This document shows, one piece after another, positions 10,530 through 24,009 of a stretch of 64,000 bases of DNA. The stretch is from contig JASGHJ010000001.1 in NCBI GenBank assembly GCA_047602405.1, positions 384,001 through 448,000 on the forward strand, in the 5' to 3' direction. The position numbers and the translations under genes are program-made. The number at the start of each line of letters is the position of its first letter. The stretch's first letter is position 1. The notes beneath the pieces are model-generated. The model saw only the letters and a program-made list of their open reading frames with translations, did not search any database and was not told the origin of the DNA. The stretch comes from Anaeromyxobacteraceae bacterium (lineage in GTDB: Bacteria > Myxococcota > Myxococcia > Myxococcales > Anaeromyxobacteraceae).

Positions 10530-12350
10530 CTACTTCCGCTCGACGAGCTTCACCGGCACGACCCTGCGGGCGCCGGCGCGGACGTACTCGACCTCGACCG
10601 TCTCGCCGGGGCGGTTCGCCTTGAGCGCGTAGGCGAGGTCCTGGAGGTTCTGCACCTTCGTCGCGCCGATGCGGACGATCACGTCGCCCGCGGCGAGCCC
10701 GGCGCCCTCGGCCGGGCTGCCCGGGCGGACGCCGGAGAGCAGCACGCCCGGGTCCGGGCGCTCGCCGAACTCCGGCACGGCGCCCAGGAACGCGCCGCCC
10801 GTGCGGCCGCCGCCGCCGCGGCCCACCACGCCCTCCTTCGGCGGCTCCACCCGCACGACCGCGAGCCGGTCCTGCGCGTCGGCGAGGTCCCGCACCACCC
10901 GCCCGGCGTAGCGCGCGACCTCGGCGACGGCCTTGCCGTCGATCTTGTCGGCGGTGTCGCTCGGCCGGTGATAGTCGAGGTGGGCGCCGGTGAAGAAGTA
11001 CAGCACCGGGATCCCCTTCGCGTAGAAGGCCGTCGAGTCGGACGGTGCGTAGCCCTCGCCGTCCCACGCGAGCTTGAGCGTCACGGCCGGCGCCCGCTCC
11101 GCCAGCGCGCGGACCCGCTCGCGCAGCCCCTTCGCCGTGTCGACGCCCTGCACGTAGACCTTCCCGCCCTGCGGGCGGCCCACCATGTCGAGGTTCACCA
11201 TGAGCTGGATCTTCTCGGCGGGGCAGGCGGCCGGGAGCTCCTTCACGAGGTGCGTCGAGCCGAGGAGCCCGGTCTCCTCGCCGGTGAAGTGGACGAAGAG
11301 GAGCGTCCGCCGGAGCGGCGGGCCCGCCCTGAAGCCGCGCGCGAGCTCGAGCACCGCGGAGGTGCCGGAGGCGTTGTCGTCGGCGCCCGGGTGGACCTGT
11401 CCGACCTGCGTGGGCGCGAGCGAGGTCTCGCCGCCGAAGCCGAGGTGGTCGTAGTGCGCGCCGACGACCACGCACTCCCCGGCGAGCGCCGGGTCCGCGC
11501 CCGGCAGCACCGCCGCCACGTTCGAGGAGGTGGTCTTCTCGTGCACCACCGTGATCTCGAGGGTGGCCTTCAGGCCGAGCGCCCTCGAGCGCGGCTTCAG
11601 GTCCGCGCCGATGGGCGCCGCGAGCGCCGCGACGTCCACGCCCGCCTCCTTCAGCGCCGCGAGCGTCACCCGCGCCGCGAGGACGCCGCCCCGCGAGCTC
11701 GTGGCCTCGGACCAGGCCGGCAGGTCGTCGGCCGCGGGGTGGTGCCAGTCGTCGCGCACCGCGAGCAGCGCGGCGGCGCCGTGCTCGCGCGCGGTGATCG
11801 CCTTCTGGCGCCACTCGCCGAGCGCGAAGTTCTTCGGGTCCCGGAAGGGCGAGGCCGGGTCCTGCTCGCGCGGGAAGTCCTGCGCGACGACGACGATCTT
11901 CCCCTTCACGTCGAGCCCGGCGTAGTCGTCGTAGCCGAGCGCGGGCGCCGAGATGCCGTAGCCCGCGAAGACGAGCTCCGCCTCCACCTTCCCGTCGTCC
12001 GAGAAGCCGAACGGGACGAAGCCCTTCGAGAGCTCCACCGGCCTCCCCGCGAGCGCGAGCGCGTTCGGCGCGCCGAGCCGGGCCCGCCACGGCACCTCGA
12101 AGCGCTGCTGGTAGCCGGCGTCGAACGCGGGCGCGAGGCCGAGCGCCCGGTGGCGGGCCTCGAGCCAGTCGGCGGCCGCGGCGAGGCCCGGGGTGCCGAT
12201 GCCGCGCCCGGTGCGGGCGGGGTCGGCGAGCCAGGTCACGTCGGCGCGGAGCCGGGCCGGGTCGGGCGAGAGCTCTCCGGGCGGCGGGCGGACGGCGGCG
12301 CAGGCGGCGGCGAGGAGCAGGGACGCGGCGGCGACGCGGGCGAGGCGCAT
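10530..12350 (-). CDS. M28 family peptidase lipoprotein with PA and PDZ domains
   Basis: Lipobox LAAAC; GAHYDHLG, GADDNASG, FTGEETGLLGS, NLDMVG, DYHRPSD; C-terminal PDZ GSPAEGAGLAAGDVI. Confidence 0.9.
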   Translation of the reverse strand: MRLARVAAASLLLAAACAAVRPPPGELSPDPARLRADVTWLADPARTGRGIGTPGLAAAADWLEARHRALGLAPAFDAGYQQRFEVPWRARLGAPNALALAGRPVELSKGFVPFGFSDDGKVEAELVFAGYGISAPALGYDDYAGLDVKGKIVVVAQDFPREQDPASPFRDPKNFALGEWRQKAITAREHGAAALLAVRDDWHHPAADDLPAWSEATSSRGGVLAARVTLAALKEAGVDVAALAAPIGADLKPRSRALGLKATLEITVVHEKTTSSNVAAVLPGADPALAGECVVVGAHYDHLGFGGETSLAPTQVGQVHPGADDNASGTSAVLELARGFRAGPPLRRTLLFVHFTGEETGLLGSTHLVKELPAACPAEKIQLMVNLDMVGRPQGGKVYVQGVDTAKGLRERVRALAERAPAVTLKLAWDGEGYAPSDSTAFYAKGIPVLYFFTGAHLDYHRPSDTADKIDGKAVAEVARYAGRVVRDLADAQDRLAVVRVEPPKEGVVGRGGGGRTGGAFLGAVPEFGERPDPGVLLSGVRPGSPAEGAGLAAGDVIVRIGATKVQNLQDLAYALKANRPGETVEVEYVRAGARRVVPVKLVERK

Positions 12351-12388
12351 CCCGGGAACGTACAGGAAGCGCGGGCCCGCGGGCAGCC

Positions 12389-14894
12389 CTAGGCCGCCGG
12401 CCCGCCCCGCCGGCGCAGGAGCCAGGCCGGGAGCGCCACCAGCGCCGCGATCACGCAGGCGAGCTCGCCCACCGAGGCGAGCGCGCCGAAGCCCTGCAGG
12501 CCGCGGTTCTGCGCGACGAGGAGCGACCCGTAGCCGATCACCGTCGTGAGCGAGCAGAGGCCCACCGCGCCGCCGGTCTCCCGCAGCACGCGCGAGAGCG
12601 AGCCGCGGCCCTCGGCGCGCCAGCGCTGCACGATGTTCACGGCGTAGTCCACGCCGATGCCGAAGGTGATGGGCAAGGTCACGAAGTTGAGGAAGTTGAG
12701 GCGCACGCGCGTCGCGCCGGCGATCCCGAGCAGCCAGAGCACCCCGAGGAGCAGGCTCCCGAGGACGAGCGCGGACGCGCGCAGGCTCCGCATCGAGAGG
12801 AGCACCAGCACCACCACCGAGGCGAAGGCGAAGACCGTGGCGATCGGGCCGTCGCGCAGGATCGCGTCGGCGATGTCGATGAAGAGGCATCGGTTGGCCG
12901 AGGGTCTGCGCCCGCGCGCCGGAGCGGTCGATGGCGCCGCGGAGGAGCTCGGTGAGGGACCGCATCTCGACCGGCGTGAGCGTGCCGACGTGGCGCGGGA
13001 AGGCGAGCGCGATGCGCCCGCGGGTGCCGTCCCGCTCGGTGAGCGGCTGGCGGATGATGGCCGGGAGGTCGTCCACCGTGATCGGGCGGACGTCGGGCGG
13101 GGGCCGGAGCGCGAGCACCTTCGCGCGGAGCTCCGGCTCGAGCCGCGCGAGCCGCGCGTCGGTGAGGGTGTCGCGCAGGCGGTTCAGCCGCTCGACCTTC
13201 GCCTCCTGGTCCTTCGGCACCACCGTGCCGAGGGTGCGCACCTCCCGGATCGGGTCGGCGGCGCCGAGCGCCGCGCGATCCCGGTCGAGCTGGGCGACCA
13301 CCTTCTCGAGCTCGGCGGGCGTCTCGCCGACGACCACGAGGGGCGTGAGGTAGGTCTGGAACACCTGGTCCTGCCTCGTGCCCCAGAACTGCGCCCCCTC
13401 GCGCTCGCTCTTCGCGGCGCGGAGCTTCCTGAGGTCGTACTCGACGATGTCGCCGCGGTAGCTCGCGATCCCGGCGATCGCGAGCGCGGTCGCGAGGCCC
13501 GTCACGGCGAGGATCCGCTTCGGGTGGGTGCCGTTCAGCCAGGAGACGAACCGGCCGATCAGGGAGTCGCGGACGTCCACCCGCTCCCCGGTCCGCATCG
13601 CGTCGAGCGCGGCGAGGAGCGGCGGGAGGAGCAGGTACGCGGTCACCCAGCAGAGCGCCATCCCCAGCCCGCCGATGATCCCGAACTGGCTGAAGCCGCG
13701 GAAGTCGGTGACCGCGAGCGAGAGGTACGAGAGCCCGGCGCCGAAGCTCGCCACGAAGGTCGCGGCGAGCGTCCCCGCGAAGGCCTCCTCGTTCGCCTCG
13801 AGCACGCCGCGCCCCCGGCGCCGCTCCTCGAGGTAGCGGGCCACCACGATGATCGAGACGTTGATGCCGTTCCCGATGACGATCGAGCCCAGGAACGCGG
13901 TGTTGGTGTTGAGGTAGCCGACCAGGAACCAGGAGACGCCGAAGGTGAGCGCGCAGCCCACCGAGAGCGCGCCGGCGATGGAGAGGATGGCCGACCAGCG
14001 CCGGAAGTAGAACCAGAGGAGCGCGAGGGTGAGCGCGAGCACCACGACCGCCGACGAGAGCAGGTCGGCCGCGAGCGCCTCCTGCTCCTCGACGATGGTG
14101 GCGACCTCGCCGCCGTAGCCGATCTGGATCGTGGGGTCGTAGCGCTCGGGGTGGAGCACGGCGAGCTCCCTCTTCACCGCGTCGAGCACGGCGAGGTTCG
14201 ACTCGAGGTTCGTCGCCGAGAGCGGCGGCCGGACGAGCAGCACCAGGATCTTCCCGTCCGGGGTCTGGTAGTAGCCGTTCCGGAAGCGCGCGACCGAGCC
14301 GCCGGCGCGCGCGACCCGGGCCTCGACGTCGGAGAAGTCGAGCGGGGGCGCGGGCCCCACGTCCTCCTCGTCGCCGAGGAGGTCGAGCATCGGGTTCGCC
14401 TTCCTCTTCTCCCAGGCGATCCGCCGGTCGATCCGGCCCTGGATGGTGTCGAGGTCCTCGACCGAGAGGTAGAACCCGCCGAACCTCCGGAGGAACGCGG
14501 TCTCCTCGTCCACCCGGTAGTCGACCGCCCGGACCACGCCCGGCGGGAGCTTCCTCAGGCGCGGGGCGAGGTCGTCGGCGAGGCGGGCGATCGCGTCGCC
14601 GTCCTGGCCGGTGATCACCACCGACAGCGTCGAGACGCTGTAGAGCTTCGGCCCGAGCGTGCGCGCCGCCGCCACGCTGGGGGCGGTGTCGGGCAGGAGC
14701 TCCTCGAAGCCGGAGCGCAGGTTCGCGTAGAGCCGGACCGAGAAGAAGGTGCCGAGGACGAAGAGGACGAGCGCCGCGCCGAGGACGAGGCGGCGGTTGC
14801 GCACGAGCCCGGGGACGAGCGCGTGCGCGAGCCTGCGGGAGTACCCACCGTAGCCGGCGGGCACGGGACCCGGGTCCGGGCCGTTCCCGTCCAC
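12389..14894 (-). CDS. MMPL/RND family transporter (HpnN-like), split by a single-base insertion near 12887
   Basis: Two TM repeats (IVIGNGIN; ITFGIGVDYA). Reading ATG CTC TTC ATC instead of ATG CCT CTT CAT joins the N-terminal frame to ORF 12389..12817; start uncertain. Confidence 0.85.
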
Positions 14895-15034
14895 TGCCGG
14901 ACCGGCCGGCCGCTCTGCGTCTCTGGTCTCCTGCACGTCGAGGGCCCCGGCCGCGCGTGCGGCGGGGCTCGCGGTTCGATACTTGAAGGACCCGCCGTTG
15001 CCAAGTAGCTTCAGAGCTTTCTGGCGGATCTCCC

Positions 15035-15689
15035 ATGCGCGCCCCACACCTCCTGGCACTCCTCCTTTCCCTTGCGCTCCCCGCGGTGGCCCACCCGGAG
15101 TCCGCGACCGAGGCGCTGAAGGCCCGGGACGCGGAGATCCGCGCCGCCCTGCCGCCCGCGGGGGTCGAGCCCTCGCCCGCCGTCCGGGCGAAGCTGGAGT
15201 CCATCGTGACCCGGGCCGTCGACCTCGACGGCATGGTGCAGAAGGCCATGGGGAAGAGCTGGGGCCAGGCCACCCCCACCCAGCGGAAGCGCATCGTCGG
15301 CGCGTTCACGAAGCGCTTCGGCGCCCTGACCGGCGGGCAGCTCGACTCCTACCGCTCGACCGACGTCGCCTACGGCGCGGAGGCCCCGGGCGCGGGCGGC
15401 ACCACGACCGTCCCGACGAAGGTCGTCGTGAAGGGCGAGCCGACCGAGATCGCCTACGCCCTGAGGAAGCAGGGCGCCGGCTGGCGGATTCGAGGACGTC
15501 GTGATCGACGGCGCCTCCACGGTGGAGGGCTTCCGCTCCTCGTTCGCGAAGACCATCGCGAAGGAGGGCATCCCGGGGCTCGTGACGAAGCTCGAGAAGG
15601 CGGCGGCCCAGAGGTCCACGAAGCCCGCGCCACCGCCCTCCCCGAAGCCCGGGCCGTCCCCGAAGCCCCCCGCCGGGGCGAAGCCGTAG
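15035..15689 (+). CDS. MlaC/Ttg2D (HpnM-like) lipid-binding periplasmic protein, single-base insertion near 15490
   Basis: Signal peptide; removing one T from CGGATTCGAG restores WRIEDVVIDGASTVEGFRSSF, the MlaC WxxxDVxxxG-S motif. Confidence 0.8.
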
Positions 15690-15754: not shown

Positions 15755-17668
15755 ATGCCCACCCGCCTCGCCCGTCCCCTCGCCCTCGCCGGTCTCGCAG
15801 CCGCCTGGGCGCTCGCCGCCGCCCCGGCCCGCGCCGACGCCCCCCGCCCCGCCCGCACGTACACCATCGAGCAGTTCCTCACGACCGAGTCGGTCGGCGG
15901 CGCGAGCTTCTCCGCCGACGAGAAGCGCCTCCTCTTCTCCTCGAACCGCACCGGCATCTGGAACGTGTACGAGGTGCCGGTGGCCGGCGGCCCGGCCCGG
16001 GCGATCACCGCCTCGACCACCGACTCGACCTACGCGGTCTCGTACTTCCCGAAGGACGACCGCATCCTCTTCACGCGCGACCAGGGCGGGAACGAGCTCA
16101 ACCACCTCTTCGTCCGCACCCCCGACGGCAAGGATCGGGACCTCACGCCCGGCGAGAAGCTCAAGGCCTCCTTCGCCGGGTGGAGCCGCGACCGGAAGGC
16201 GTTCTACGTCACCACGAACGAGCGCGACCCGAAGTTCATGGACGTCTGGCGCTACGACGCCGCCACCTACGCCCGCACCCGCGTCTTCGAGAACCCGGGT
16301 GGCTTCTTCCCGGACGCGATCTCCGGCGACGGCCGCTTCATCGCGCTCGTGAAGCCGAACACGACGACCGACAACGACGTCCACCTCTACGAGGTGGCGA
16401 CGAAGAAGCTCACGCACCTCACGAAGCACGAGGGCGCGATCTCGTACAACCCGGGCGAGTTCGACCCCGCCTCGAAGGCGCTCTACTACACGACCGACGA
16501 GGGCGGCGAGTTCCGGCGCGTGCGGCGCTACGTGCTCGCGACCGGCAAGCACGAGGACGTCGAGCGGGCCGAGTGGGACGTGATGTACACGGCCTTCTCG
16601 CGGGACGGCCGCTTCCGGGCCACCGCCGTGAACCAGGACGGCGCGACCGTGGTCCGCGTGGTCGACCGCACCGGGAAGCCGGTCGCGCTGCCGGCGCTGC
16701 CCGCCGGCGAGATCACCTCGGTCGAGTTCTCCGACTCCGAGAAGCTCGTCGCGTTCTACGCGAGCGGCGACCGCTCGCCCTCGAACCTCTACGTCTGGCG
16801 CGTCGGCGAGCCGGAGGCGCGCCGGCTCACCGACACGCTCTCGAAGGACGTCGACCCCGCCGACCTCGTGCAGAGCGAGGTGGTGCGCTTCCGGGCCCGC
16901 GACGGGCTCACGATCCCGAACATCCTCTTCAGGCCGCACCAGGCGGCGCGGGGCAAGGTCCCGGCGCTCGTCTGGGTCCACGGCGGGCCGGGCGGCCAGA
17001 CGCGCCAGGGCTACTCCGCCGTCATCCAGTACCTCGTGAACCACGGCTACGCGGTCCTCGGCATCAACAACCGGGGCAGCTCCGGCTACGGGAAGACCTT
17101 CTACGCCGCCGACGACCAGAAGCACGGCAAGGAGCCGCTGTGGGACTGCGTCGACGCGAAGGCGTGGCTCGCGGCCCAGCCGTGGGTGGACGCGGACAAG
17201 ATTGGGATCATCGGCGGCAGCTACGGCGGCTACATGACGCTCGCCGCGCTCGCCTTCCAGCCCGACGCGTTCCAGGTCGGCGTCGACATCTTCGGCGTCG
17301 CGAACTGGGTCCGGACGCTGCAGAGCATCCCGGCCTGGTGGGAGGCCCAGCGCAAGGCGCTCTACGGGGAGATGGGGAACCCCGAGACCCAGCTCGACAT
17401 GCTGAAGGAGATCTCGCCGCTCTTCCACGCCGAGAAGATCCGCCGGCCGCTCCTGGTCCTGCAGGGCGCGAACGACCCGCGGGTCCTCAAGGTCGAGTCC
17501 GACGAGATGGTGGAGGCCGTGAAGAAGAACGGCGTGCCGGTCGAGTACGTCGTCTTCCCCGACGAGGGGCACGGCTTCTCGAAGAAGGCGAACCAGATCG
17601 AGGGCTACGGGAAGGTCCTCGACTTCCTCGACCGGCACCTCAAGGGCGCGAAGCCCGCCGGGAGCTGA
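15755..17668 (+). CDS. S9 family serine peptidase (dipeptidyl/acylaminoacyl peptidase)
   Basis: Signal peptide, propeller region, VHGGP, GGSYGG, QGANDPRV, FPDEGHGF; GGAGG RBS. Confidence 0.93.
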   Translation: MPTRLARPLALAGLAAAWALAAAPARADAPRPARTYTIEQFLTTESVGGASFSADEKRLLFSSNRTGIWNVYEVPVAGGPARAITASTTDSTYAVSYFPKDDRILFTRDQGGNELNHLFVRTPDGKDRDLTPGEKLKASFAGWSRDRKAFYVTTNERDPKFMDVWRYDAATYARTRVFENPGGFFPDAISGDGRFIALVKPNTTTDNDVHLYEVATKKLTHLTKHEGAISYNPGEFDPASKALYYTTDEGGEFRRVRRYVLATGKHEDVERAEWDVMYTAFSRDGRFRATAVNQDGATVVRVVDRTGKPVALPALPAGEITSVEFSDSEKLVAFYASGDRSPSNLYVWRVGEPEARRLTDTLSKDVDPADLVQSEVVRFRARDGLTIPNILFRPHQAARGKVPALVWVHGGPGGQTRQGYSAVIQYLVNHGYAVLGINNRGSSGYGKTFYAADDQKHGKEPLWDCVDAKAWLAAQPWVDADKIGIIGGSYGGYMTLAALAFQPDAFQVGVDIFGVANWVRTLQSIPAWWEAQRKALYGEMGNPETQLDMLKEISPLFHAEKIRRPLLVLQGANDPRVLKVESDEMVEAVKKNGVPVEYVVFPDEGHGFSKKANQIEGYGKVLDFLDRHLKGAKPAGS

Positions 17669-17675
17669 GGCCCGC

Positions 17676-20600
17676 TCAGCGTGCGGCGAGCGCCTGCCGC
17701 ACGATCACGAACTCCACCCGCCGGTTCCTGGCGCGGCCGGTCGCGGTCCTGTTGGACGCGACCGGCCGGTCGGGGCCGTAGCCCCTCGCGTCGAGCCGCG
17801 CGTCGGCGACGCGGCCTGGACGAGGAAGGCGCGCACGCGCCTCGCGCGCCGGTCGGAGAGCGCGCGGTTCGCGTCGGCCTTGCCCTGCGTGTCGGTGTGG
17901 CCCTCGACGCGGACCCGCTCGAGCTCGGGGTGGTCCCGGAGCGCGCGGGCGACGGCCTCGAGGAGCGGGAACGACTCCGGGAGGATGGCGTCCCTCGCGG
18001 TCGCGAAGTGGACCTGCTCGAGGATGACGAGCCGCTCCTTCGTGACGACCACCTGCGGCGGAGGCGGCGCGGGGAGCGGCGCGGGCGCGGGCGGGGCGGG
18101 CGCGGCGACGACCGGCGGGGCCGGCGGCGCGGGGGCCGGGGCCTGGACCTGCACGATCACCGGCGGGGGCGGCAGCGGGACGACGAGCGCCGGCCTCGGC
18201 GCGGGCCTCGGGGCCGGCGGCGGCGCCGCGGCCACGGCCGGCGCCGGACGCGGCACGAAGGCCGCCGACGCGACGACGCGGAAGCGCGGCGTGCCGTAGC
18301 CGGCGCCGACGCCGGGGCCGCCGCCGAGCGTGAGCTCGAGGCCGAGCGGGAGCCGGGCGCGGGCGGCGAAGAGGAGCTCCATCGGGCTCGCGCGCGCGCC
18401 GCCGCCGAGGCTGGCCTCGCCCGCGAAGGAGCCGAGGAGCGCGAGGGGACCTCCCCCGACGCGGAAGGCGAGCGGGAGCTCCGCGGCCACCCCGTACGAC
18501 ACGGCCCGGCCGACCGAGAGGTCCACGAGCTGGCGCTCGCCGCGCGCGACGAAGCCGGCGCTCGCGAGCGCGCGGAGGCCGCGGGCGCCCCGCCACTCGG
18601 CGAGCGCCTCGAGGCCGCCGGTCACCTCGCCCTGCCCGGCGTAGGCGTCGCGCCTGCCGGTGGGGAGGCGCACGGGCACGCCGAGCGCGAGGCCGAGCGG
18701 CCCCGCGTCGACGAGGTGCGCCTTCGCGGCGAGCGAGACGTCGCCCAGGCTGGCGGCGGCCTTCGGCAGGGTGACGCCGGAGATCGACGGCCGGTCGCCG
18801 CTGGGCATCGTCATCGGCACGGTCGCCGCGAGCTCGAAGCGGTCGAGGAGGCCGATCGAGGCGCCGAGCTGCGCCGTGGTCTGGCTCGCGACGAGCGGCC
18901 CGGCCACGGAGGCGTCGGCGGTCGACGCGATCCGGAGCGGCTGGTCGGCGTAGGAGAGCCAGAGCGAGAGGTGGCGCTCGAGGTGGCCGGGGACCGCGGC
19001 GGAGGGCACCGCGAGCACGTCGGCGGCGCCGCCCTGCGGGTGGAACCGCTCGACGTCGATGGACTGGGCCGCCCCCGGGCGCGGCAGGGCGAGCGCGAGG
19101 AGGCCGGCGGCGACGCGGGCCGCCGGGCGGACCCGCACCGCGACGGCGGCGCGGCGCCGGCCCGCGCGGGCGAGCACGAGCGCGGCGAGGAGCGCGAGCG
19201 GGCCGGTGGCCCCGCCGGAGCTGCAGCCGGAGCCGGACACCGAGAGCGCGGCCGTCGTGGAGCCGGCCCGGCAGGTGCCGATCGGCTGCGGGTAGGCGCA
19301 GGCGTCGGCGTGGGTGCCGTCGCAGGCGGCCCCGCAGGCGGCGCCGCCGGGCTCGCAGGCCGTGCGGCCGCCGTGCGGCGCGCCCGTCACCGGGGTGCAC
19401 GCGCCGGCGTGGCCGGCGACGTCGCAGGCCTCGCACTGCCCATCGCAGGCGCGGTCGCAGCAGACCCCGTCCACGCAGGCGCCGCTCGCGCACTGGCCGC
19501 CGGCGCCGCAGGCCTCCGCCTGCTGCTTCTTCGGGGTGCAGACGCCCGCCGCGCACCAGCCGCCGGCGGCGCAGTCGGCGTCCGTCCCGCAGTCTCCCTT
19601 GCAGGCGCTCGCGCCGCAGGCGTACGGGGCGCAGTCCACGGTCTCCGCCGCCGGGCAGTGGCCCGCGCCGTCGCAGGTCGCGGGCACGGTGGCGACGCCC
19701 GCGGCGCAGGCGCCCGCGCGGCAGGCGGACCTCGGGAAGGTGCACGCCGCGCCGTTCGCGCCGTCGCAGGCACCGCCGCAGGCGGTGCCGTCGGACTCGC
19801 AGGCGGGGCGCGGCCCGACCGGCGCGCCGGTCACCGGCGTGCAGGCGCCGGCGTGGCCGGCGACGTTGCAGGCCTCGCACTGGCCGTTGCAGGCGCCGTC
19901 GCAGCAGACGCCGTCGGTGCAGAAGCCGCTCGCGCACTGGGCGTTGCCGGCGCAGGCCTGGCCGCCGCCGAGGCGGGGCTGGCAGACGCCGGCGGCGCAG
20001 TAGTTTCCGGCCGCGCAGTCGCCGTCGACGGCGCAGTCGCCGCGGCAGGTGCTCTCGCCGCAGGCGTAGCCGCCGCAGCCCACGGTCTGGGCCGCCGGGC
20101 ACGCGCCCGCGCCGTCGCAGGCGGCGGCGAGCGTGGCCGTGCCGGCGCTGCAGGAGGCGCCGCGGCAGGCGGTGGCCGCGCCGGGGTAGGCGCAGGCGCC
20201 CCGGACCGCGCCATCGCAGGCGCCGCCGCAGGCGGAGCCGTCGGAGGCGCAGGCGGCGCGCGCGCCGTGGGGCGCGCCGGCGACCGGCGCGCAGGTGCCC
20301 ACGCTGCCCGGCACGTCGCACGCCTCGCACTGGCCGTTGCACGCCGCGTTGCAGCAGACGCCGTCCGCGCAGTGGCCGCCCGCGCAGGCGTCGTCGGCGG
20401 AGCAGGCCGCGCCCGGGCCGCCCTTCGGCACGCAGGCGCCCGCGGAGCACCAGGCGCCCGCGGCGCAGTCGGCGTTCACCTGGCAGGCCGCGAGGCAGGC
20501 GGTGGCGCCGCAGGCGTACTCGCCGCAGCCCAGGGTCTGCGGGGCCGGGCACGCACCCGCGCCGTCGCAGGCCGCCGCGAGCGTGGCGGTGCCGGCGCTG

Positions 20601-22942
20601 CAGGAGGCGCCGCGGCAGGCGGTGGCGGCGTCCGGGTAGGTGCAGGCGTTCCGGGCGGTGCCGTCGCAGGCCCCGCCGCAGGCGGAGCCGTCGGAGGCGC
20701 AGGCGGCCCGGGCGCCGCGCGGCGCGCCGGCCACGGGCGCGCAGGTGCCGGCGCTGCCCGGCACGTCGCAGGCCTCGCACTGACCTTCGCAGGCCGCGTT
20801 GCAGCAGACGCCGTCGACGCACAGGCCGGTGCCGCATTCGGCGCCCGCGCCGCAGGCCTGGCCGCGGTCGAGCCGGAAGGTGGCCACGATCTCCCGCGGG
20901 CCGGTCACGTTCGCGGCGCCGTACGTGGCCCCCTGGACCTGCGCGAGCACGTCGGCGCCGGCGTCGGCGAGGGCGGCGAGCACGTAGCCCGCGTCCGGGG
21001 TGACGGTGCAGGCGGCGGTCGCGCCCTGCGCGACCGGCGAGAGGCAGGAGAGGGCGCCGTGGCCGCCGGGCACCGAGGTGGTGACCGAGGGGCCGTCGAA
21101 GGCCGCGAGGGCGGTCGCGTCGCCGGCGATCGAGAGCGTGCAGGTGGTCTGCGCGCCGGCGCAGGCCCCGCTCCAGCCGGCGAAGGTGTCGCCCGGGCGC
21201 GCGACGGCGGTGAGCGTGACCTGGCCGCCCTGCAGCACGTTCATCGAGGTCGTGGCGCAGCCCTCGGCGCAGGCGATGCCCTCCGGGTACGAGACCACCG
21301 AGCCCTGGCCCGTCCGCCCCGCCGCCTTCTCGACCGTGAGCGTGCGCAGCGTGCCGATGCCGTTCACGTCGGCGTCGGCGTTGTTGGTCGGGTCGGGGTC
21401 GGTGACGCCGGAGGGCGCCGTCACGGTGGCGGTGTTGGCGAGCGTGCCGTTCCCGGAGCCCGCGACCACGGTCGCGGTCACGGCGAAGGTCGCCTTCGCG
21501 CCGGAGGGCAGCGTGACCTTTCGGGCCGAGATGTTGCCCGTGCCGCTCGCGGTGGTGCAGGCGCCGCCGCCGCTCGCGGTGCAGGTCCAGGCGACGTTCG
21601 CGAGCTGGGCCGGGAAGGCGTCGTCGACCGTGGCGTTCGTGGCGGTGGCCGGGCCCGCGTTCGAGACCTCGATCGAGTACGCGACCGGCTGGCCCCACAC
21701 GACGGCGGAGCTCGCGTCGCGCACGGCGACCGAGAGGTCGGCATAGGAGACGGCGGAGGTGAGCGCGGTCTCGACGAGCGGCCCGAGGAGCGCGGAGACG
21801 GAGTCGGCGCGGATGGCGTAGTTGCCGTTCGCGATGCGCCCGGTGGCGCCGTTCGGGATCGCGACCGTCACGCTGAAGGTCGCGCTCGCCGAGGGGTTCA
21901 TCCAGCCGAAGTTGCAGGAGACGGTGCCCGCCTGGCCGACCGCGGGCGTCGTGCAGGTGGCGCCGGCGGGGGCGCTCACCGAGACGAACGTGGTCTGGCC
22001 GGTCTGGGTGGCGCCGCTGAACGCGGCGGGTAGCACCTCGTCGACCACCACGTTCGGCACGAGGCCCGGCGTCGCGTTCTTCACGAGGAACGTGTAGGTG
22101 AGCTGCGTGCCGGCGTTCGCCGCCTGCGGCGCGCTCGCGGCGACCGACAGGCTCGGCAGGTAGGCGCCGAAGCCGTCGACCGCGACCTCGCCCCAGTGGC
22201 CGGTCTGGGCGCAGCCCGCGGCCACGACCGCGATCTCGACGGTGTCGCCCGGAGTGAGCTTCGCGTCGCCGGGGGCGACGTCGAAGATCTGCCAGTCGGT
22301 GTAGCGGACCTGGTTCTGGCCCGTCCCCTGGACGTTCCACGGGATGCCGGGCTGGTTCGAGTAGTTGAAGGTCGTGAAGAGCAGCGTGTTGCGGGTGACG
22401 TTGCGCAGCTGGGCCCAGAAGTACGGCTGCTGGTTCACCGGGTGGCCGGGGTCCTGGAGCGCCGGGGCGAGCGCGAAGCGCACGTGGACCTTGCCGTCGG
22501 CCGGATCCACGTCGGAGGTCGTCACCGCGTAGGACTGCTTCAGCGTGTTGACGTTGTAGTTCTTGCCGCCCTCGTTCACGACGACCGAGGCGTTCCCGAA
22601 CTTCGGGAGCACGGGCTGCGCGAGGCCGGAGAGGCCGTAGAGCTGCTGCGCCGGGGCGGTGCGGACGTAGGTGCGGGCGGAGCCCCCGGACCGGAGGTTG
22701 AGATCGCCCAGGCTCGCGGGCGGGTAGGTGATGCCCGCGGACGTGTACTGGCCGGCCGGCGTCAGGTGGGTCGTGATGGTCCAGCCGGTGGTCGTGCCGT
22801 CCTCGAAGCCGCCGTTCACGAAGAGCGGCGCCTCCGCGAGCTGGGTCGCGCCGCTCCCCCCGGAAGGCTGACCGCCGCACGCCGAGAGGGCGATCGCAGC
22901 GCAGGTGACGAGGACACCGCGGAGGTGGGGGAAGGTGAGCAT
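17676..22942 (-). CDS. Large surface lipoprotein: DUF11 x2, InlB-B-like repeat, Cys-rich repeats, MYXO-CTERM-like tag, beta-barrel, Pro linker, OmpA C domain; one-base deletion near 17812
   Basis: Lipobox LSAC; OmpA motifs VHFATARD, VEGHTD, NRALSDRRA; the end ARGYGPDRPVASN...RARNRRVEF lies in the adjacent frame with stop at 17676. Confidence 0.85.
19280..20870 (-). repeat. Intragenic tandem repeat, about 450 bp (150 aa) Cys-rich unit, 3 full copies plus a partial fourth
   Basis: GCAGCAGAC anchor (DGVCC) at 19457, 19901, 20351, 20801; spacing 444/450/450. Confidence 0.9.
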
Positions 22943-22966
22943 GGTCGTGATCTCCGGGGCCTGCGA

Positions 22967-22982
22967 AGCAAGCCGCGGGCCC
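22967..22982 (-). promoter_or_regulatory. Putative sigma54 promoter for the surface protein gene
   Basis: Minus strand GGGCCCGCGGCTTGCT = GG-N10-GC with TTGC, about 25 bp before the ATG. Confidence 0.55.
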
Positions 22983-23057
22983 GTGCCCGGGGACCGCGCG
23001 ACCCAGCGTGATCAGGGACCCGGGCCCCGGCGACCTGCCGCGGGCTGCGCGTGTCGT

Positions 23058-23072
23058 TGACGGAAACCGTCA
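23058..23072. promoter_or_regulatory. Palindromic operator/enhancer candidate
   Basis: TGACGG-AAA-CCGTCA in the divergent intergenic region. Confidence 0.45.
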
Positions 23073-23217
23073 GTCGATAGCGCGTCGTTCACGCAGGGAG
23101 AACGTGGGCGGCGCGCGCACAGAGGGGCGCGAGGTCGGCAGGTTCGACATCGGGCGCGCCATGACACGCGAAGGCGGGAGGCCGGGCGCAGCGTGAAAGG
23201 GATACTCAGGAGGACGC

Positions 23218-24009
23218 ATGAGCGGCGATCGATACGGCGTGTTCGCGGTGGGCAACCACCTCATCGGCGTCCCCGCCGCCCAGATCCACGAGATCTTCCA
23301 GCTCGGCGAGGTGCGGGTGCCGCCGAACTGCCCGCCCGAGCAGCGCGGCCTCGCCGTGCTCCGCGGCAACGTCTTCCCCGCCCTCGACCTGCGGGTGTGC
23401 CTCGGCCACGTCTCCGCCCGCGAGGAGAGCGAGGCCCTCGCGGCGCTGCTCGGCGAGCGCGAGGAGGACCACAGGCGCTGGGTCGCGGAGCTCGAGGCCT
23501 CGGTGCGGGAGCGCCGGCCGTTCAGGCTCGCGACCGATCCGCGCAAGTGCAAGTTCGGGCAGTGGTACTACGCCTTCAAGTCGGACGACGCGGTGCTCCG
23601 CTCCGAGCTCGCGAAATTCGAGGAGCCGCACGCCCGCATCCACGCGCTCGCGATCGAGGTCGGCAAGCTGGTCGAGGCCGGCCAGCTGGACCGGGCGCTC
23701 GAGCGCATCGAGCAGACGCGCCGGGGGCTCCTCGCCACGCTCGTCGAGCAGTTCGAGCGCACCCGCGCGGCCCTCCACGACGCGCGCAAGGAGGTCGGCG
23801 TGACCGTCGAGCTCAACGGGCGCCGCTCGGTCCTGATCGTCGATCGCGCGGAGGCCGTGGCCGACCTCGAGCCCATCGCGGCCGAGGACGACCCACTCGC
23901 GGCGGGCACGCTCCCGGTGGACCTCGTCCGCAGGCTCGCGCGCTGGCGCGGCAGCCCCGCGCCGGTCCTCCTGCTCGACGTCGAGCGGGTCGGGAACCTC
24001 GCCGGCTAG
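23218..24009 (+). CDS. CheW-like protein with inserted CZB zinc-binding domain
   Basis: CheW halves (GLAVLRGNVFPALDLR; LIVDRAEAV...LLLDVERV) flank DHRRW...CKFGQWYY...PHARIH; AGGAGG RBS. Confidence 0.85.
   Translation: MSGDRYGVFAVGNHLIGVPAAQIHEIFQLGEVRVPPNCPPEQRGLAVLRGNVFPALDLRVCLGHVSAREESEALAALLGEREEDHRRWVAELEASVRERRPFRLATDPRKCKFGQWYYAFKSDDAVLRSELAKFEEPHARIHALAIEVGKLVEAGQLDRALERIEQTRRGLLATLVEQFERTRAALHDARKEVGVTVELNGRRSVLIVDRAEAVADLEPIAAEDDPLAAGTLPVDLVRRLARWRGSPAPVLLLDVERVGNLAG

Follow-up and report, generated by a model that had tools for sequence, protein, structure and literature searches.

The closest described relative of the gene analyzed here is MXAN_5598 of Myxococcus xanthus, a protein that combines an adhesin, an internal MYXO-CTERM tag, a barrel, and an OmpA domain (Guo, Haft, and Wall 2025, PMC11980579). 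The accessible text of that paper compares MXAN_5598 to a fusion of TraA and TraB and proposes that its N-terminal part is processed; it says nothing of a second signal peptide in MXAN_5598 and leaves the release of the barrel open. The same text presents the cleavage of TraA by MrtX and export by type II secretion as established. In other papers, the traA and traB genes are described as overlapping by 4 bases (PMC3325183), their products arrive at the outer membrane independently (PMC12045341, which sets out the TraAB model), MXAN_5598 is listed in an outer-membrane-vesicle proteome (PMC4158809), and Anaeromyxobacter isolates reportedly carry no traAB (PMC6372800). The literature searched contained neither a second signal peptide behind a MYXO-CTERM tag nor a paper on AgmC; further sources may bear on the second signal or on a double lipid anchor.

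In this work, we analyzed a 64-kb window of an Anaeromyxobacteraceae genome (contig JASGHJ010000001.1, positions 384,001 to 448,000), and within this window the minus-strand gene at 17676..22942. The gene encodes an adhesin, an internal MYXO-CTERM tag, a barrel, and OmpA in one open reading frame (ORF), and it belongs to the MXAN_5598-type fusions, an architecture in print since 2025. Its product is a single precursor that two cuts at a membrane hairpin within the chain would likely turn into a surface adhesin and a separate outer-membrane barrel.

The fused reading frame and its internal junction

Third-position GC content of the gene (17705-22942) stays at 0.92-1.0 in a single frame from codon 1 to approximately codon 1700, the junction included, and no stop codons occur at 19000-19300 in any of the three frames of the strand. 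An earlier note on this DNA had described one stop-free ORF from a lipobox through a tag to a barrel and OmpA-C, and the third-position GC content, the frame check, and the Pfam matches all bear this out. The lipobox, DUF11 domains, Cys-rich repeats, and OmpA domain on its feature list were recovered, but the InlB B-repeat-like region was missing from that list.

The internal sorting tag that had also been proposed was checked with hidden Markov models and received borderline support. In an 87-aa piece, the GSGCSS...RRR tag at 19151-19234 scores 21.0 bits with TIGR03901 (cut-off 20) and 17.9 bits with TIGR03382 (cut-off 15.85), and TIGR03901 gives 21.9 bits at the tag in a six-frame genome search. 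Neither Cys1240 nor Arg1263 varies across 32 aligned homologues, a set selected for carrying the barrel. The source genome (G000; 6.16 Mb, 98% complete) encodes MrtX (191 bits, cut-off 180) and GspD (531 bits, cut-off 351).

Two internal segments rank first and third in hydrophobicity within the protein, and the N-terminal signal ranks second. The second signal had been described as following the tag at once; there is indeed no stop in between, but AAVAVR (six residues) and VRP separate RRR from AARVAAGLL. We parsed 56 fused junctions from proteins and loci, setting aside 19 split, stand-alone, or unparsed rows, and 40 junctions were left below 70% identity, with the source gene represented by P0103. 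A hydrophobic stretch with a small-x-Ala (-3,-1) site lies directly before the barrel in 36 of the 40, versus 5.4 expected from composition shuffles. When the +1 residue is limited to Q, E, or D, the count is still 36/40 versus 1.6 in shuffles, and the same rule applied to the tag helix is fitted by 5/40. Ala1292 is nearly invariant in the 32 aligned homologues.

We consider the double cleavage likely because the junction is conserved, split relatives exist (see below), and both MrtX and GspD are encoded. The proposed pathway includes five steps: (i) the precursor would be exported by Sec via its N-terminal lipoprotein signal, (ii) the tag helix would stop the transfer, leaving the Arg cluster in the cytoplasm, where it would also serve as n-region for the second signal, and this signal would restart export of the barrel, (iii) the tag Cys would be lipidated, MrtX would cut behind it, and signal peptidase I would cut after Ala1292, (iv) type II secretion would bring the adhesin to the surface, and the barrel would be passed to BAM, and (v) the two halves would act as a 1:1 glycan-binding adhesion complex, with the ratio fixed by the fusion. 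In such a complex, OmpA-C would be the predicted link of the barrel to the cell wall, and the adhesin would be lipid-anchored with a predicted sugar-binding tip.

The earlier note had proposed a polyprotein of an adhesin and a barrel/OmpA anchor, cut at an internal tag and a second signal peptide; conservation, the split relatives, and the sorting machinery support this, and the cleavage itself is what we infer from the reading frame, the tag, the second signal-like segment, the modelled folds, the split relatives, and the genes found. Several points weigh against this reading. The activity of MrtX is documented for short terminal tails, and here it would act on a long hairpin. TIGR03901 gives 18.6 bits on a 167-aa piece, below its cut-off, and is unlisted for the whole protein. 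The signal-site rule behind the count of 36/40 is our own and was devised after the sequences had been seen, and, as the sequences are related, such counts overstate independence. The putative glycan binding is read from likeness of fold (TM 0.4-0.46, 10-16% identity). Finally, the source gene has an in-frame GTG (19136-19138), seven codons into the linker and kept in genome G026, and 7 of the 20 junctions with DNA, the source gene included, have a candidate start codon.

These codons would fit two in-frame genes, with the barrel translated from an internal start at GTG 19136-19138 and the long product being an adhesin with a tail. The sequence GTG-CGG-GTC-CGC in the source gene and in G026 would read as an ordinary M-R-V-R signal peptide, and split relatives exist. 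We regard this arrangement as unlikely. In 13 of the 20 junctions (a set with some near-duplicates, from which 6 split or stand-alone rows were skipped), the stretch that starts 8 codons ahead of the Arg cluster and extends to the h-region lacks ATG, GTG, and TTG, so an ordinary internal start cannot supply the barrel there; three of the 13 have a candidate 9-11 codons before the Arg cluster, and the paralogue P0003 is among the 13. Moreover, GTG 19136-19138 is not preceded by a purine-rich ribosome-binding site, and no stop follows the tag.

A further alternative is a single cut, in which signal peptidase frees the barrel and the adhesin, unprocessed by MrtX, stays attached through the hairpin or through its N-terminal lipid. 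The lipobox at the N-terminus could suffice to anchor the adhesin, the tag score is borderline, and some uncut TraA was still found at the surface in mrtX mutants (accessible text of PMC11980579). Against it stand the invariant Cys and Arg of the tag, and the lipobox is present in 23/23 scored homologues with a terminal tag; therefore both anchors normally co-occur. We give this possibility little weight. By the same lipobox rule, which is our own and left 25/99 homologues unscored, the motif occurs in 27/28 scored barrel-fused homologues, 13/20 others, and 0/3 IPTL-tagged proteins. With the double cleavage, the adhesin would be lipid-anchored at both ends.

The assembly itself contains an error-like site in this gene. 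The frame is lost near 17811-17813, leaving the last ~45 aa of OmpA-C in another frame that ends at 17676. The best share of the strain itself in any run was 0.07, so the read check was made on relatives ~90% alike; it revealed one additional C near 17811-17813 in related contigs of 4/4 runs; the same C is present in G026, and P0103, a cluster mate named Anaeromyxobacter sp. (89% identical, 1767 aa), is intact. The window holds lone one-base indels versus G026 at 12886, 15489, and 17813, each gene-breaking. Because relatives are intact and other such indels occur in the window, the frameshift is probably an assembly error. The three indels hit a membrane-protein gene, an MlaC-like gene, and the fusion gene, respectively, and ORF calls in the window are unreliable, e.g., a 1509-aa frame at 10530-15059.

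The same indels could be taken to mean that the fusion, too, arose from a lost stop or an indel in an error-prone assembly, which we consider practically negligible. No indels versus G026 exist across 18221-23197, related short-read contigs of two runs cross the junction with no indel there among the rows listed (all but 4), and fused homologues are named for cultured genera, e.g., Archangium, Cystobacter, and Vulgatibacter. An assembly artefact is refuted for the junction and stands only for the frameshift near 17811.

Fused, split, and swapped relatives

The fusion is real, conserved, and common in the Anaeromyxobacter-like group. Two further fusions are encoded in the source genome (C2:2278145-2282512, minus strand, and C2:3421791-3428321, plus strand); the P0002 passenger consists of Kelch repeats, that of P0003 of InlB-B arrays and a Cys stalk, and the junction is as in the source gene. 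By comparison of these sequences, the passenger is freely swapped between junctions of the same kind. The source genome also encodes a stand-alone barrel/OmpA gene, and ten barrels lack an upstream tag in any frame; thus, barrels of this type also stand alone. A fourth such fusion is held by G026 (L061), and the order-level relative G129 has a second lipobox-adhesin-tag-signal-barrel fusion (L084, G129:C1:7461172-7466859) besides its AgmC-type gene.

The search with the tip domain identified 99 proteins (959-3054 aa) among 2472 candidates, with the barrel in 43/99. The barrel alignment search gave matches in 53/92 family genomes, fused and stand-alone forms pooled, and a locus scan for relatives of the gene found 3 loci. 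At 8 loci the tagged protein and the barrel are encoded by two genes, which overlap by 4 bases (ATGA/GTGA) at 7 of them, likewise to traA and traB. In a quick tree of 61 barrels, midpoint-rooted and read with no claim on the direction of fusion versus fission, the fused state requires 4 or more changes along the starred branches; the clade of the source barrel (98% support) comprises 29 fused barrels and 1 split one (L038).

Next to mrtX, P0004 carries this hairpin too, but its second signal is a lipobox; 16 of the 17 parsed loci show the arrangement (25 were fetched and 8 remained unparsed). This 1771-aa Cys-rich protein (L020, G000:C2:2884420-2889737, plus strand) has an internal MYXO-CTERM and, behind it, a lipoprotein signal LAAASGC and TIG-like domains; its gene is divergent from mrtX (~C2:2883475-2884266, minus strand), and the P0004 region has matches in 37/66 family genomes. 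A 2194-codon frame at G000:C1:2257714-2264295 (plus strand) ends with a MYXO-CTERM-like tail and has an OmpA/TraB-model match directly upstream; it has no NCBIfam match.

Feature layout and predicted folds

The features of the precursor are collected in Table 1. The four units of the Cys-rich stalk are of the DGVCC type.

Table 1. Features of the fusion gene, with positions in the 64-kb window
Feature	Position	Strand	Basis or remark
Whole precursor gene	17676..22942	-	open frame as assembled 17705-22942, 1745 aa; true C-terminus in neighbouring frame to 17676
Lipoprotein-type signal peptide, lipobox LSAC, Cys22	22877..22942	-	sequence
Tip domain, CBM-like jelly-roll beta-sandwich by prediction, without Pfam family	22157..22834	-	AF2 model and Foldseek
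Two DUF11 Ig-like domains	21353..22156	-	PF01345 E 7e-25, 2 stretches
InlB B-repeat-like domains	20867..21352	-	PF18998 E 4e-10, 2 stretches
Cys-rich stalk, four ~150-aa units, 86 Cys	19259..20866	-	TIGR04201 14.7 bits (cut-off 25)
Internal MYXO-CTERM: GSGC (Cys1240 at 19223-19225), hydrophobic helix, RRR	19151..19234	-	TIGR03901
Second signal-peptidase-I-type signal (putative): Arg cluster n-region, h-region, GAA/Q site after Ala1292	19067..19159	-	conserved junction site
Outer-membrane beta-barrel, predicted 12 strands, N-terminus QSIDVERF	18257..19066	-	AF2; NF033763 partial
Pro-rich periplasmic linker, without TSP3 repeats (unlike TraB)	18053..18256	-	sequence
OmpA-C peptidoglycan-binding domain, interrupted by one-base loss near 17811-17813	17676..18052	-	PF00691

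The tip domain (residues 37-262) was modelled by AlphaFold2 (AF2) with a pLDDT of 91.6. Its best Foldseek matches are carbohydrate-binding modules (CBM) of families CBM4, CBM61, and CBM27 and related beta-sandwiches (E 4.5e-6), and the modelled fold suggests that the tip may bind glycans. The tip has no sequence match in PDB and none in NCBIfam at E up to 1; its Atlas matches are unnamed clusters, and a CBM_4_9 row at 0.82 is a lead only. The domain also occurs in P0092-P0094, P0097, P0083, P0086, and P0088 (one named Luteitalea), which have IPTL-type tails or are untagged and lack a lipobox. Its presence in such proteins marks the tip as a mobile surface module, one that Pfam does not cover.

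The segment starting at QSIDVERF was modelled as a 12-strand barrel (AF2 pLDDT 89.4), and the wide structural search was made with this barrel only. The nearest solved folds (Foldseek E 2e-8) are the COG4313 channel (4rl8; Z 22.0, root-mean-square deviation (rmsd) 2.9, 242 residues aligned) and FapF (5o65; Z 21.8, rmsd 3.4, 230 aligned), and autotransporter barrels reach Z 16-19. Like the COG4313 channel and FapF (Z about 22), the source barrel is predicted to have 12 strands and an N-terminal extension; identity is 11-14%, and the likeness is one of fold.

These folds raise the question of whether the barrel, beyond anchoring the adhesin, also exports it as a pore of the FapF or autotransporter kind. 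Some fused homologues do lack OmpA-C: P0009 and P0010 stop directly behind the barrel. P0022, which lacks it as well, has another tail, so the barrel seems to be the constant partner among the fused homologues. We consider such a pore very improbable: a disulfide-rich, lipidated passenger of 1200 aa would be a poor substrate for a 12-strand pore, GspD is present, TraA and TraB get to the outer membrane independently of each other (see above), and a common fold shows no function.

The gene is solitary. It is flanked by an S9 prolyl oligopeptidase gene at 15755-17668 (plus strand), which G026 lacks at the same position, and by a gene at 23218-24009 (plus strand) for a CheW-like protein into which a chemoreceptor zinc-binding (CZB) domain is inserted. 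No sigma-70-like promoter turned up for the fusion gene, and two terminator-like sites lie inside it on the opposite strand; neither result is informative.

Comparison with TraA/TraB and MXAN_5598/AgmC

The earlier note had called the adhesin TraA-like and the barrel TraB-like and had suggested a self-recognition system. The first of these claims was not borne out: the TraA models NF033759 (cut-off 750) and TIGR04566 are unlisted for the protein at E up to 5, the control TraA from G129 scores 1163 and 321 bits, respectively, the TraA N-terminal domain aligned to the tip family with an hhalign probability of about 1%, and the tip folds like a CBM. A BLAST match between the stalk and the TraA stalk (E 0.006, 27%) is Cys-biased, and the TIGR04201 score of the stalk lies below its cut-off. 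No TraA was found in the source genome with a TraA query.

The claim for the barrel holds in part. The TraB model NF033763 matches it with 181 bits (E 2e-53), or 227 bits for the intact P0103; the barrel is homologous to that of TraB and is accompanied by OmpA-C. However, the score is far below the cut-off of 700, TSP3 repeats are absent, the barrel is fused to an adhesin, and it is nearer the AgmC/MXAN_5598-type barrel than TraB.

Self-recognition is not supported, given the lack of TraA homology, the CBM-like tip, and the conservation of the tip. The suggested N-terminal polymorphism was not seen in the between-species comparison, in which the tip is 96% identical to P0103, the most conserved domain (stalk domains 89-92%, other domains overall 89-95%), and 77% identical to P0005, among the most conserved (stalk domains 75-77%, other domains overall 75-82%). 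At this scale, the tip is not a variable domain on the sequences compared. A fused TraAB-like system for self-recognition and outer-membrane exchange would share the module order of traA-traB, the homologous barrel, and the Cys-rich stalk, but it is quite improbable: the tip has no homology to the TraA N-domain, it is conserved between species, the opposite of a variable domain, the genome yields no TraA, and traAB was reported absent from Anaeromyxobacter isolates.

The G129 gene between ftsA and ftsZ scores as AgmC (NF047640, AgmC_N), and from gene order we infer that it is the equivalent of MXAN_5598. For the source gene, an AgmC identity was rejected: AgmC_N is not listed, and its neighbours are the S9 peptidase and CheW/CZB genes, not ftsA and ftsZ.

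Taken more broadly, the junction may represent a general myxobacterial hairpin of secretory polyproteins, a generalization that we favor slightly. The Arg cluster of the tag would be the start of the second signal, and two envelope proteins would be released from one chain by myxosortase together with a signal peptidase, of type I ahead of barrels and of type II ahead of lipoproteins. In the present case, these would be an adhesin with a lectin tip and a lipid anchor at either end, and a wall-bound barrel, members of a large TraAB-like plug-and-play adhesion family in which kin recognition would be one special case.

If the cleavage occurs, two membrane proteases would act at one hairpin to process a bacterial secretory polyprotein encoded by the gene. 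Such a design is familiar from viral glycoprotein precursors. The outer-membrane arrival of MXAN_5598/AgmC-type barrels, left open in the accessible text of PMC11980579, would be explained, and TraB-like barrels would be general partners of tagged adhesins. M. xanthus, for which mrtX mutants are available, allows a direct test of the polyprotein reading. The gene is one of many, and its single annotation as 'OmpA family protein' would conceal a two-protein nature.

Compared with MYXO-CTERM/MrtX sorting (TIGR03901, NF040593), the source gene shares the Cys motif, the helix, and the Arg cluster, with MrtX and GspD in the genome, whereas its tag is internal, with ~500 residues after it, and the substrate would carry lipid at both ends. 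The likeness to TraA/TraB (NF033759, TIGR04566, NF033763) comprises a Cys-rich surface protein with a tag and, after it, a homologous barrel and OmpA-C, as well as split relatives with the same 4-base overlap. In contrast to that pair, there is one ORF here, with a signal of the lipoprotein rather than the type I kind, a conserved tip, neither a PA14-like variable domain nor TSP3, and scores far below the cut-offs. MXAN_5598/AgmC differs in its passenger, as the source gene has a lipobox, CBM-like tip, DUF11 domains, and Cys-rich stalk and no AgmC_N, as well as in having TSP3-like repeats in place of the Pro linker and in its location, the source gene lying outside the cell-division cluster. 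The AgmC-type gene of G129 nevertheless has the same junction of tag, Arg cluster, and second signal (...ARPAVA/Q), and its barrel is 37% identical to that of the source gene (E 2e-35).

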